Part shown: positions 12,465 through 57,446 of the stretch, one piece after another
How positions within the stretch are numbered: position 1 is the stretch's first letter
How the letters are laid out: every line of letters begins with the position of its first letter
NCBI GenBank assembly: GCA_000165345.1
Contig: CM000434.1
Span: 416,001 to 480,000 of the forward strand
Reading direction: 5' to 3'
DNA length: 64,000 nt
Translations under genes and position numbers: made by a program
The notes under the pieces: model-generated
Told to the model about the DNA's origin: nothing
Seen by the model: only the letters and a program-made list of their open reading frames with translations
The model's database searches: none

Positions 12465-13302
12465 TTAACTAGTCATTTTAATATCTTCTTCTACTTCATA
12501 TTCGAGGTTAATTTTTTTCTTTTTTGAAAGAATTTCCCTCAACTCATGCTTATGCATCGCTTCAAGTTCATCTTCTGAGTCATCATCTATGCCCTCGATA
12601 TATTCGGCCAACTCATTTTCAAGAGAATCTCCATTACTAACTTCATCTTGAGTAACATTCTCAAGATTATCTAGTGTTTTCTCAAAATTATTAGTTGGAT
12701 AGTTGTATATTCCATCATACAATCCCTCTTTAAGTCTAAGTAATAACTCATTTTCAATTTCATTTTCAATCTTTGCCGCATTAAGTGCCTTATGCTCTCT
12801 TGACGCCTCTCTTCTTTCCGTTTTTTTCTTAATTGGTACAAGCTTGGGTCTTACGGTTAATGCCATCTTTCTTGCACGAATAAGAGTTTGTCTAATTCTA
12901 GTTAACCTATGTTTGCATTTTAGTATTTGATGCTCGGGATAAACATTCTTTAAATTATCATTTATTTGGGAGATTGCAACCAAAAAATTGTTACTAAGTT
13001 TAATTTTTTCCCAAAGATATCTAGGGGTATGAGCTCTCTCAGCAGTTTTCATATATAAATAGCAATCTCCTTCGTGTTCAATAACTGTTGCATATAGTAA
13101 ATTTGATAAGGGGCATGATGTACGATTGCATAGCCCTGTTACATTATATTCGTTTCTGCAAAAAGAGGTTTTGTCGCATCTAATAAATAAAACAAGAAAA
13201 GAGTAAAGTTCATTGATTATTTCGTTGTAATAAAACTTACTTTACTTTAAATGAGCAAAAATTATTGCTAACACTATTCCATATTAACTCAGGGTCGTTC
13301 AT
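12465..13302 (-). CDS. MAK16: MAK16 ribosome-biogenesis protein (Ribosomal_L28e/Mak16 family), 2 exons: 13302..13241 and 13179..12465, intron 13240..13180 (61 nt)
   Basis: The listed ORF 12465..13052 starts at a Met that aligns to the middle of yeast Mak16 (MKVIERAHFPRRLWERVRLS). The open frame continues upstream as [46 protein letters not shown]. A 62-nt first exon, MNDPELIWNSVSNNFCSFKVK (cf. [22 protein letters not shown]), is joined through a GTAAGT...TTATTAG intron. Total 777 nt, 258 aa. C-terminal acidic tail is typical of Mak16. Confidence 0.8.
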
Positions 13303-16672: not shown

Positions 16673-16861
16673 CCAAATGAGATGAAAATAATACTTTGAA
16701 AGTTTTAAATTTTAATCTTTTATTCTACTTATTTTAGTCTGTAAAATTTTTCCTCGATTTAATATAATTTATTCCAGTTATTTTCATGACAATTATTTTA
16801 TAAAACATTCAAGGCGCCTTAATGTTCAGATTTTTAAAAGATTTTTTCAACTATAAAATCA

Positions 16862-17738
16862 ATGGACCTTACACTATTAGAGTCAAGTATTGGAATGCCA
16901 AGTCTCCCAAATCAAACTTGTGATGATTTTATGTCCAGCTTAATTGAAATAGGAGACTTGGCATCCTGGTCCCTTTCTTCTGCTAAAGTATGTTTTTACT
17001 TGCACTTGAAAAAATAAAATACATTTCAGCCAGGAAATGGAATACAACAGTTGAGAGATAATAACTCAAGCACATTTTGGCAAAGCGATGGCCAAAGCCC
17101 ACACACAATCACGCTGAGATTTCCTAAAAAAACAAAAGTTTCGGTAATTGATCTATACCTTGCATACAAAATAGATGAAAGTTATACTCCCCAAATTATT
17201 TCTATTAGGTCTGGAAATCAAGAAAGCGATTTGGAGGAGTTGAAAGAAATGCAACTTACTGAACCAGATGGATGGGTAAGAATTCCTCTCTCCCCAAGGG
17301 AAATCGCGGATAATTTTTTTAAAGATGCAATGTAAGTAAATAATAGGTAATTCAAACAATTAATTGTTATTTTTAAGGCCTATACAAATCAAGACAATGT
17401 GCGATTCTCAAAATTATATTTCTGCATTCTGCATTCAGGTAAGAAACATCTTAGAAAATATGAACATACTTATTTATTTTAGATAGCAATACTTGCAAAT
17501 CATCAAACTGGAAGAGATACACATGTCAGGTATGTAAAGTGTGTTTATTTGAATTATTTAATATGCCTTGTTAGACAAATAAGAGTTTGGGGGCCAAGAG
17601 AAGTGAATGACAACGTTGTAGGAAAGTAAGTTAAAAATATAACTTAAAAGATTGACTAAACCTTTCAGAGTCCCAATTTCACAACCAATAAAAATGGGCA
17701 CGACGATTGATACAAGAATGTATCAGATTTTAAGATAA
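16862..17738 (+). CDS. APC10: Anaphase-promoting complex subunit 10 (APC10/DOC1), 6 exons: 16862..16987, 17030..17331, 17378..17438, 17483..17529, 17575..17625, 17669..17738
   Basis: DOC-domain signature: FWQSDGQSPHTITLRFPKKTKVSVIDLYLAYKIDESYTPQIISIRSGN vs human [48 protein letters not shown]. Exon 1 EIGDLASWSLSSAK = human EIGSQAVWSLSSCK. Exon 4 IAILANHQTGRDTHV = IAVLANHQNGRDTHM. Last exon MGTTIDTRMYQILR* = CTTIDFMMYRSIR*. Five introns of 42-46 nt with GTATGT/GTAAGT/GTAAGA donors and YAG acceptors; phases are consistent and total 657 nt (218 aa). The ORF track shows only exon 2 (17051..17335). Confidence 0.75.
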
Positions 17739-17924: not shown

Positions 17925-18269
17925 ATGTTGAAAATATTAGGCTTTTTGATGGCATGCTTCCAGCAAAGCAATAACCAGTATTACAAAGATGATAAATTCA
18001 AAGATTGTAGCGATTCAAATTCGCTTGTGAAGTATACATCAATTGGAATAAAAATAATAGTATATTCAATTTCATGGATAATGGTGTTAATATGGGATGC
18101 TTATGAATATGGGATGGTTTTTTATGGGCTAATATTGAGTATTTATATCTTGAAATATTACTCAAAATACTCATGTTTAAGATGTGTATTTGAAGAGATT
18201 TTTAAAAAACAAATACTGAAACATATATTCCCAAAAAGTTTAAACAAAATAGTAGAATGGCAATCTTAA
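17925..18269 (+). CDS. Possible small hydrophobic protein (114 aa); may be spurious
   Basis: ORF with one or two predicted TM helices (IKIIVYSISWIMVLIWDAYEYGMVFYGLILSIYIL) lying between APC10 and SRP19. Its end is only 40 nt from the SRP19 ATG, so it would overlap the SRP19 promoter. No homology recognised. Confidence 0.2.
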   Translation: MLKILGFLMACFQQSNNQYYKDDKFKDCSDSNSLVKYTSIGIKIIVYSISWIMVLIWDAYEYGMVFYGLILSIYILKYYSKYSCLRCVFEEIFKKQILKHIFPKSLNKIVEWQS

Positions 18270-31644: not shown

Positions 31645-32057
31645 ATGAAAAATAAAATAAAAGCTTTAGCGACGTCTAATTCCTCAATAGAAAACAATAA
31701 TAAAGTATTCAAACAATGCAGATTAATCGGGACAGTGCTTTTCGGGACTTTAGCAGGAATTTTGGGGTTTAAGGGATTTTCAGGTAAGTCATCTTATGAT
31801 TATTAATATTCCTATTAAACTTCTGTTTTAGGCATTATGTTCTATATTTACTCCTTAATAACTACTTTAATCATCATAGTACTGAAGATAAGAATTAATA
31901 AGTGCAATCACTATTTTGACACGTTTAATGAAGTATTAGGAATTGGTGATTACTTTCTAGTAAGTTCTCAGAAAATAAATATAAATAAATGACTAATTTT
32001 TAGAGTTTTATTCTTTTTTGGTCGATTTCATATTGTATTTGCCACATTTACTATTGA
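31645..32057 (+). CDS. EMC6: ER membrane protein complex subunit 6 (EMC6/TMEM93), 3 exons: 31645..31783, 31832..31959, 32004..32057; absent from the ORF track
   Basis: Spliced product MKNKIKALATSNSSIENNNKVFKQCRLIGTVLFGTLAGILGFKGFSGIMFYIYSLITTLIIIVLKIRINKCNHYFDTFNEVLGIGDYFLSFILFWSISYCICHIYY* (106 aa) aligns along its length with human EMC6 (...[82 protein letters not shown]). Introns of 48 and 44 nt, both GTAAGT...TTTTAG, phases 1 and 0. Confidence 0.7.
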
Positions 32058-55775: not shown

Positions 55776-57301
55776 ATGGATGGGACGCTACATCAAAATG
55801 AAATTATTTCTTTGCTAGACGAAAAAAGAACCATTTCAAGCACAATAAAATTTTCGTCGCTACTTGGGTCTATTACAATAACCAAGTTAGTAATATTTTT
55901 GGTCGGATTCTCAGATGGACTGACTCACCTCGCAACGCTGGCAATTTACTACTTGCTGAAGGATGATTTACGCCTCTCTCCTCCTGAAGTATCGGTTATA
56001 TATGCAATTCCTGCGATACCTTGGTTTTTGAAACCTTTATTTGGTAAGCTACAAACCATTTTTTAAAGTATAAATAAATTTCTTAAAGCATTTTGCAGTG
56101 ATTCAATACCTATTGCAGGTAAGCTTGAAGCTCATTCAAATATATTCGTATAACATACTTATAGGAATGAGAAGAAAGCCATACTTGATTTTTTTCTCAA
56201 TTCTTCAAGTTATAGGCTTTTTACTACTTGCAACAAACGTAAGTTAACTCTAAATTTATAATAATATTTTTAATAGTTTCAGGCTGATACTGTTTTTAAA
56301 GCTGCAGTCTGCCTACTACTAATATCTTTAAGTGCAGCATTTTGTAGCAGTATTGCTGAGGTAAGTTATTAGAAAATAGATTAATTAATCAATAATCTCT
56401 AAAAAAACAGGCATTAGTTGTAGAGACATCTGGAATTAATGGTGGTGCTGAAACAGTCTCCGATTATTTTGGCTCAAAGGCATTGGGTGCACTAGCAACG
56501 GCATATTTTTCTGGTTCATTGTTAGATACATACAGTAAACAAGGAATATTTCTTACAACGTCAATTTTTCCATTATTTGTTTTTATCGCTTGTCTGATAA
56601 TGGATGATAAAAAACAGACAGAAGATCTCACTGCGAAGAATCAGCTATTTTCGCTTAAGGAATTTTTGAAAAAACCCATAATTTGGGGGCCTGCAATATA
56701 TATTTTTACTTATACTGCAGGACCAGACTACGACGATGCAATGTTTTTTTACTTTACAAATAGGCTTGGCTTTTCGCCGACATTTATGGGTAGCTTAAGG
56801 CTTACTTATGGAATTGCAGGTATAATTGGAATTGTTCTATATAGAATTATTCTCAAGAAGACCCCATTCCGTGAAATATTGCTTTGGACTACTTTGTTTT
56901 CAATACCAATTTATATTCTACCTCTAGCGCTTGTCACAGGACTCAATTTGAATATGGGAATTTCGAATAGAATGTTTGCATTGTCTGGTGGATTTCTGAT
57001 TGAAGCCATTGCAGAAATACAGTTGTTACCACTTCTTGTAATGACTGCAAAGTTTTGCCCAAAAGGCCTTGAAGGGTCTGTATATGCGGTTATGATGTCA
57101 ATACGAAGTCTTGGAATAGGGGTTTCAAAAGTTATCTCCGCAGGATTGGCCTACTCACTTGGAATTACAGCATTCAATTTTTCAAACTTGGGGTTATTAA
57201 TTTGGATTTCTTCCGCATTTCTCCTGCTGCCTCTCTTTTTTCTAAATTTGGTTAGTTATCATACTTTTTCCATATTTCAAGTTCATTTTTTTAGGTTGTG
57301 A
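55776..57301 (+). CDS. Folate-biopterin transporter (BT1 family, MFS), 5 exons: 55776..56043, 56089..56118, 56165..56238, 56283..56360, 56411..57301
   Basis: Exon 1 carries the BT1 signature GLTHLATLAIYYLLKDDLRLSPPEVSVIYAIPAIPWFLKPLF. Splicing gives ...KPLFAFCSDSIPIAGMRRKPYLIFFSILQVIGFLLLATN... (cf. plant/protist BT1 [30 protein letters not shown]), then ADTVFKAAVCLLLISLSAAFCSSIAE and ALVVETSGINGG... continuing into the listed ORF 56483..57301. Introns of 45, 46, 44 and 50 nt (GTAAGC/GTAAGT donors, AAG/TAG/CAG acceptors). An alternative acceptor at 56098 is excluded because it creates an in-frame TGA in exon 3. Total 1341 nt, 446 aa, roughly 11 TM helices. Confidence 0.75.
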
Positions 57302-57446
57302 ATGAAGAAGAGATCCAAAGTACAGAAAATCAAGTATAATTCAATATTCTCAAAATGATTAAAATTAAATAACGAAATATCTTATGAGATTTTATTTAGA
57401 ATTGAAAATAATTTTCTATACTACAGTAAATTTTTACTATGAAAGT

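Follow-up and report, generated by a model that had tools for sequence, protein, structure and literature searches.

The six-exon APC10/Doc1 gene of Cryptosporidium parvum: splice model, conservation in the genus and comparison with known APC10 proteins

In human and yeast, the DOC domain of APC10 and the WD40 domain of the coactivator together constitute the co-receptor of the D-box, and the tail of APC10 binds the TPR groove of APC3 (PMC5717348). With regard to Cryptosporidium, a 2011 survey of APC/C subunits reported APC1, 3, 6, 8 and 11 for C. hominis and did not list APC10 (PMC3195147). Introns are present in 10.8% of C. parvum genes; the intron-bearing genes have 2-10 exons with a mean of 2.6, and the introns have a mean length of 99 nt and a G+C content of 22% (PMC4637869). 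The closest described system is a deposited gene of the same species, CPATCC_002707 of C. parvum IOWA-ATCC; the paper on the IOWA-ATCC annotation states that its introns are 100% RNA-seq-supported, a general statement that is not specific to this gene (PMC8744675). Here, we analyse a locus in a window of C. parvum DNA, by which we mean the whole stretch of 64,000 nucleotides under study. A preliminary description of this locus had proposed an APC10/DOC1 gene split into six exons by five introns of 42-46 nt. We conclude that positions 16862..17738 of the plus strand very probably represent the single-copy APC10/Doc1 gene of C. parvum, interrupted by five short GT-AG spliceosomal introns and coding for the APC10 subunit.

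Gene structure and evaluation of the splice model

The exons and introns of the gene are as follows.

Exon 1, 16862..16987 (+): 126 nt; ATG at 16862; residues 1-42, ending ...WSLSSAK.
Intron 1, 16988..17029 (+): 42 nt; GTATGT...CAG; phase 0; in frame, holds a stop.
Exon 2, 17030..17331 (+): 302 nt; residues 43-142; first part of the DOC domain.
Intron 2, 17332..17377 (+): 46 nt; GTAAGT...AAG; phase 2, splitting the Met142 codon as AT|G.
Exon 3, 17378..17438 (+): 61 nt; residues 143-163; PIQIKTMCDSQNYISAFCIQ; includes Q163.
Intron 3, 17439..17482 (+): 44 nt; GTAAGA...TAG; phase 0.
Exon 4, 17483..17529 (+): 47 nt; residues 164-179; IAILANHQTGRDTHV plus positions 1 and 2 of the R179 codon.
Intron 4, 17530..17574 (+): 45 nt; GTATGT...TAG; phase 2, splitting the R179 codon as AG|A.
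Exon 5, 17575..17625 (+): 51 nt; residues 179-195; (R)QIRVWGPREVNDNVVG plus positions 1 and 2 of the K195 codon.
Intron 5, 17626..17668 (+): 43 nt; GTAAGT...CAG; phase 2.
Exon 6, 17669..17738 (+): 70 nt; residues 195-218; ...TTIDTRMYQILR; LR tail, then TAA at 17736..17738.

Joining the exons of 16862..17738 (+) after removal of the five introns and translating the product yields a frame of 657 nt with one terminal stop, corresponding to 218 aa. The exon and intron coordinates of the preliminary description are exact and restore this frame, while several of its details had to be adjusted. All five introns have GT...AG boundaries, and their donors are GTATGT, GTAAGT or GTAAGA as it had listed; four of the acceptors also agree with the YAG ends that it gave, and that of intron 2 is AAG instead. 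It had placed the exons in three different frames; they occupy two, since the intron lengths modulo 3 are 0, 1, 2, 0 and 1. Its statement that exon 2 alone appears as an open reading frame holds at a cut-off of about 60 aa or more and fails below it, where exon 1 is found in a 51-aa ORF. Its colinearity with human APC10 stands, and the C-terminal IR that it had read is in fact LR (...MYQILR).

The G+C content of the exons is 33-41% and that of the introns 17-24%, in an AT-rich region (29.7% for the window). When retained, intron 2 gives an immediate TAA stop, and intron 4 of C. parvum is in frame and stop-free. Skipping of exon 3 would join AT|ATAG, which reads as a stop. A look by eye at the five introns for branch-point and polypyrimidine signals revealed no obvious consistent motif. 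As regards placement, four of the five introns (16988..17668) lie within the last 35% of the coding sequence. We also note a 33-aa ORF at 16822..16923 (+) that begins at an upstream ATG in another frame and overlaps the start codon of APC10; it would count as a uORF in a transcript whose 5' UTR extends that far.

Two comparisons suggested by the preliminary description, of the joined exons with a DOC/APC10 profile and of the locus with its orthologs, both bear the gene model out. The spliced protein matches Pfam PF03256 (ANAPC10) with 204.2 bits (E=1.8e-60; profile positions 18-171 of 185), where the curated cut-off is 21 bits, and exons 1-2 alone reach 154.5 bits (positions 18-125 of 185). 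The best sequence matches in the PDB are all APC10/Doc1, with human APC10 at E=4.7e-46 over residues 21-184 of 185. In the alignment to human APC10, four of the five junctions lie within conserved stretches that are free of gaps, namely SSAK|PGNG, FCIQ|IAILANHQ, THVR|QIRVW and VGK|VP; the first of these, at intron 1, aligns without gaps to human SSCKPGFG, and the second, at intron 3, with human FMIQIAVLANHQ.

In order to have a measure of how often such splice signals would arise by chance, strict pairs of a strong donor and a YAG acceptor were counted. The APC10 gene holds 4 of them, compared to a mean of 0.43 and a maximum of 3 in shuffles of the gene segment; intron 2 misses this strict pattern solely through its AAG acceptor. 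With both strands scanned, the gene is the densest cluster of donor and YAG signals in the window. The intron pattern is not due to chance.

We then scored alternative splice models with a hidden Markov model built from 50 APC10 sequences that included no Cryptosporidium sequence. The 82 models consisted of the proposed one, 80 frame-preserving alternatives that changed one intron at a time, and one retention variant. The proposed model ranks first with 241.5 bits. Its margin over the best alternative junction is 31 bits for intron 1, 21 bits for intron 2 and 50 bits for intron 3, and just 1-3 bits for introns 4 and 5; in the case of intron 5, it is acceptors farther downstream that score this close to the chosen one. 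Because of these small profile margins, the junctions of introns 4 and 5 are decided by conservation across species, and that of intron 5 is settled by the constant 70-nt exon 6 together with the conservation of PISQPIKMGTTID in seven species.

Conservation across Cryptosporidium and competing gene models

For the ortholog comparison we used the orthologous loci of C. muris, C. bovis, C. canis, C. ryanae, C. felis and C. meleagridis against C. parvum. The orthologous gene models are themselves annotations, and the conservation statistics were computed on raw DNA. All five intron positions are the same in 7/7 species, and exons 2-6 measure 302, 61, 47, 51 and 70 nt in every one of them; the length of exon 1 differs in C. 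muris only, which carries a 27-nt N-terminal extension. The 35 introns of the seven species are all GT..AG, with lengths of 42-79 nt (42-63 nt for intron 1). Their donors are GTAAGT, GTATGT or GTAAGA in 22 cases, and their acceptors are TAG (20), CAG (10), AAG (4) and GAG (1). The acceptor of intron 2 is variable, being AAG in C. parvum, GAG in C. ryanae, and TAG in C. canis and C. muris. If retained, 33 of the 35 introns would shift the frame or bring in a stop.

With the very close C. meleagridis excluded, identity to C. parvum is 41-64% for the introns and 67-89% for the exons. In each of the six exons, the four short ones among them, most substitutions are at third codon positions of the proposed frame; between C. 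parvum and C. muris, the counts at the three codon positions are 13/2/52 in exon 2 and 2/2/13 in exon 3. At the level of sequence, each exon thus shows signs of purifying selection, and the locus as a whole bears the mark of genuine introns within a gene subject to such selection. The N-terminus MDLTLLESS... is conserved among the orthologs, and C. bovis, C. muris and C. ryanae have Ile or Thr in place of M12. At the other end, the stop right after LR is kept in all seven species, C. felis included. Colinear 218-aa orthologs are found in C. meleagridis, C. canis, C. bovis and C. ryanae, and the gene order D123-CNNM-APC10-(small ORF)-SRP19-BCCIP is constant across the genus.

The closest proteins in public records are Cryptosporidium APC10s, and the spliced 218-aa product is identical, residue for residue, to QOY41065.1 (CPATCC_002707) and to WRK32784.1. 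CPATCC_002707 is the same gene with the same model and no difference. The window itself matches C. parvum assembly GCA_035232765.1 (CP141123.1) with 100% identity across 20,877 nt, and 218-aa models have also been deposited for C. meleagridis, C. tyzzeri, chipmunk genotype I, C. canis, C. bovis and C. ryanae. The splice model is therefore correct but not new, the same model being already in GenBank. The supplements of PMC4637869, in which transcript evidence was sought, do not mention the gene; that the transcript is spliced as modelled is inferred, with the general RNA-seq statement of PMC8744675 as its support.

The preliminary description had warned that the gene is easy to mis-annotate, and the public records bear this out: at least seven different lengths have been deposited for APC10 across Cryptosporidium assemblies. 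Besides the 218-aa form, these include the following.

132 aa, C. parvum Iowa II XP_001388316.1: start at M12 and stop at the TAA opening intron 2; original reference annotation.
205 aa, C. hominis: partial.
211 aa, C. meleagridis.
233 aa, C. hominis KAL3127532.1 and C. parvum KAL5368058.1 and WKS78294.1: intron 4 retained.
285 aa, C. felis: the splicing skips the conserved stop and continues into the small ORF downstream.
313 aa, C. ubiquitum and C. hominis: probably a fusion as in C. felis, judged by length alone.

Such broken gene models are a possible reason for the absence of APC10 from the 2011 survey (PMC3195147). The practical value of the present case is modest: it shows plainly how, in a compact genome with few introns, gene models are broken by introns of about 45 nt, and the 218-aa model is the one to use for tagging, knock-out or modelling of Cryptosporidium APC10. 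It implies no new biology.

Three of the deposited annotations carry the 233-aa form, and it might be argued that this form, with the 45-nt intron 4 retained in frame, is the main or biologically relevant product, the more so as the intron is a multiple of 3 and stop-free in C. parvum, C. meleagridis and C. hominis. We consider this very unlikely. The 15 extra residues (YVKCVYLNYLICLVR) break the conserved THVRQIRVWGP block and lower the score by 10.6 bits against Pfam and by 10.3 bits against the non-Cryptosporidium profile, and the donor of the intron, GTATGT, fits the consensus, with TAG as the acceptor. It measures 52 nt in C. canis, 49 nt in C. felis, 60 nt in C. bovis, 57 nt in C. ryanae and 61 nt in C. 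muris, where its retention leads to a frameshift or a stop; since retention breaks the frame in these species, the open frame through intron 4 is a lineage-specific accident. The IOWA-ATCC model, which comes from an annotation described as RNA-seq-supported, also removes this intron.

Less probable still is a product in which splicing joins APC10 to the 114-aa ORF that follows it at 17925..18269 (+). This ORF is conserved in other Cryptosporidium species and has hydrophobic stretches, and a Pfam search matched it to no family. It lies on the same strand as APC10 at a distance of 186 nt, and fusion models have been deposited with 313 aa (C. ubiquitum, C. hominis) and 285 aa (C. felis). However, a stop directly follows the LR tail in 7/7 species, and a dipeptide of the form [I/V/L]R ends 113 of the 120 best homologs and docks into APC3 (PMC5717348). 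The 114-aa ORF is a separate gene in the annotations of several assemblies, and the authors of the IOWA-ATCC annotation warn that RNA-seq reads overlapping adjacent genes in this compact genome produce false exon fusions (PMC8744675).

The least plausible reading, a decaying pseudogene or truncated gene in which only exons 1-2 (XP_001388316.1) are functional and the rest are out-of-frame remnants, agrees with the original reference annotation in ending at the TAA that opens intron 2, but it is ruled out by the purifying-selection signature of the locus, as exons 3-6 hold their exact lengths in seven species at exon identities down to 67-89%, show third-position-biased substitution and carry family-invariant residues, and the 132-aa product would be without about 45 of the 185 DOC profile positions and without the tail.

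Intron density around the gene

The preliminary description had contrasted APC10 with mostly uninterrupted neighbours, and this contrast holds: 11 of the 14 complete annotated genes in the surrounding 20 kb are intronless. In a tally over the window, about 5 of roughly 31 genes have introns, and long uninterrupted ORFs dominate. The other intron-bearing genes are listed below.

12465..13302 (-): Mak16 gene; single intron of 61 nt at 13180..13240.
20090..20487 (+): DUF1764 gene; single intron of 44 nt at 20391..20434.
31645..32057 (+): EMC6-like small membrane-protein gene; annotated intron of 48 nt at 31784..31831 and a probable second intron of 44 nt.
55776..57339 (+): BT1/MFS gene (folate-biopterin transporter family); annotated 434 aa; introns totalling 259 nt.

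The second candidate intron of the EMC6-like gene (31960..32003, 44 nt, GTAAGT..TTTTTAG) is read through in the 99-aa model of GCA_031892065.1. The two-intron model encodes 106 aa and scores 46.2 bits over positions 2-81 of 81 of Pfam EMC6, compared to 35.1 bits over positions 2-62 of 81 for the 99-aa model, and this second micro-intron was probably missed in that annotation. For BT1, the best splice signals place introns at 56044..56164 (121 nt), 56239..56282 (44 nt), 56361..56410 (50 nt) and 57251..57294 (44 nt), a four-intron reconstruction that is not unique, as 544 combinations leave an open frame. APC10 is thus not the sole multi-intron gene in the window, since the BT1 transporter gene is multi-intron as well.

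Compared to Mak16, DUF1764, EMC6 and BT1, which like APC10 have GT-AG introns with GTAAGT-like donors (44-61 nt), the APC10 gene has more introns (5) and the highest density. It holds 7.6 introns per kb of coding sequence, against about 0.1 per kb genome-wide by arithmetic from Table 1 of PMC4637869. A six-exon gene with a coding sequence of 657 nt is, in view of the genome figures of PMC4637869, in the upper tail of the published range and inside it. The local modal intron size is about 44-45 nt, well under the published genome mean of 99 nt, and a length of 42-46 nt is the normal intron size in this window and no anomaly. The preliminary description consequently overestimated both the novelty and the oddity of the gene, whose model was already public and whose intron sizes are the local norm. 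The feature itself is confirmed as real, rightly interpreted, already known and biologically ordinary, with its splice model borne out by profile scoring, by the seven-species comparison and by identity with the deposited model.

An intron-rich stretch was also suspected at 60991..64000 and was ruled out: it is a single open frame, that of CNOT1 (60985..64000 (+), annotated with 2664 aa), which runs past the end of the window. The gene-free look of the window end is an artefact, because the list of ORFs omits frames that run off the window. Searches for tRNA genes and for Rfam matches gave none in the window.

That five introns are kept genus-wide in a genome whose introns have mostly been lost could be taken, from the conservation of their positions, to reflect selection for regulated splicing. 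Since retaining any of four introns destroys the frame, retention could in that case throttle the dosage of APC10 between life-cycle stages, and retention of intron 4 in the clade of C. parvum, C. hominis and C. meleagridis could give a 233-aa variant. We regard such selection as very improbable. Outside the genus, the APC10 gene of Coccomyxa has three introns, none of which coincides with the five Cryptosporidium positions; one of phase 2 is near the position of intron 2, within an ambiguously aligned loop. Of two further homologs compared for intron positions, one is intronless and the other is a transcript record.

The APC10 protein and its relation to known DOC proteins

Membership of the APC10 family is seen both in the sequence and in the predicted fold. 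The spliced protein retains all 28 invariant columns of an alignment of 56 APC10s, the first being W36 and the last P186. The short exons contribute Q163 (exon 3), H170, G173, R174, D175 and H177 (exon 4) and P186 (exon 5), and the codon of the invariant R179 is the one split by intron 4. An AlphaFold2 model (mean pLDDT 77, pTM 0.71) has a confident beta-sandwich core at residues 21-189, with a mean pLDDT per 10-residue block of 72-95 over 21-190, and low confidence at residues 1-20 and 190-207. Searched against the PDB with Foldseek, the model finds human APC10 chains as the best matches (E about 3e-19, TM 0.76-0.85 on target), then yeast Doc1, and the top 14 are all human APC10 or yeast Doc1. 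The predicted structure is thus consistent with the beta-sandwich (jelly-roll) fold of the DOC domain.

An insertion of about 20 residues relative to human APC10 (around 131-153, within the stretch 17256..17438 of the window, residues about 131-157) is specific to Cryptosporidium and conserved across the genus. It extends across the junction at intron 2 and takes up most of exon 3, and AlphaFold2 models it as two helices with moderate confidence (pLDDT 72-84). The APC10 of Chromera has a long insertion at the same point.

The protein ends in ...MYQILR, and the LR tail is present in 7/7 Cryptosporidium species. IR is the tail of 66 of the 120 best homologs, VR that of 36 and LR that of 11. As all three occur among homologs, the C-terminal feature of the family is taken as [I/V/L]R; LR is a common natural variant of the canonical IR tail, and by analogy it would likewise bind APC3.

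The following sequence of events may then be proposed. Removal of the five introns of 42-46 nt from the pre-mRNA would join the six exons and give a 218-aa protein with a short disordered N-terminus, a complete DOC beta-sandwich (about 21-189), a flexible linker and the C-terminal Leu-Arg tail. By homology, this protein would act as the APC10 subunit of the anaphase-promoting complex, its DOC domain forming with the WD40 domain of Cdc20/Cdh1 the D-box co-receptor and its [I/V/L]R tail docking into the TPR groove of APC3, and the result would be processive ubiquitination of cell-cycle substrates. This biochemical role in Cryptosporidium is suggested by analogy with the human and yeast proteins, and APC3 is among the subunits reported for C. 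hominis (PMC3195147).

The closest characterised protein is human ANAPC10 (PDB 1jhj; chain L of 4ui9, 5khu and 8tar), which shares the DOC beta-sandwich with about 40% identity. The two proteins are colinear from EIG..A.WSLSS to the C-terminal tail, and the family-invariant residues are all present. The Cryptosporidium protein differs in its insertion of about 20 residues before the F-x-x-Q strand, in the longer linker before the tail and in the end LR, where the human protein has IR. Doc1 of S. cerevisiae (PDB 1gqp, 8a3t) has the same fold and belongs to the same family (E about 1e-21 by sequence, about 1e-14 by fold), although it is more distant, with 27-29% identity, and longer, with chains of 221-250 aa. 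The DOC domains of HECTD3, HERC2 and CUL7 also have this beta-sandwich fold, with a weak sequence match for HECTD3 (E=6.5e-4), but they lie within large multidomain proteins and are far poorer matches than APC10. The Cryptosporidium protein, in contrast, is a small protein of 218 aa that stands alone, with a conserved stop directly after the tail, and its DOC domain outside any larger ligase, together with its [ILV]R tail, marks it as APC10 proper.
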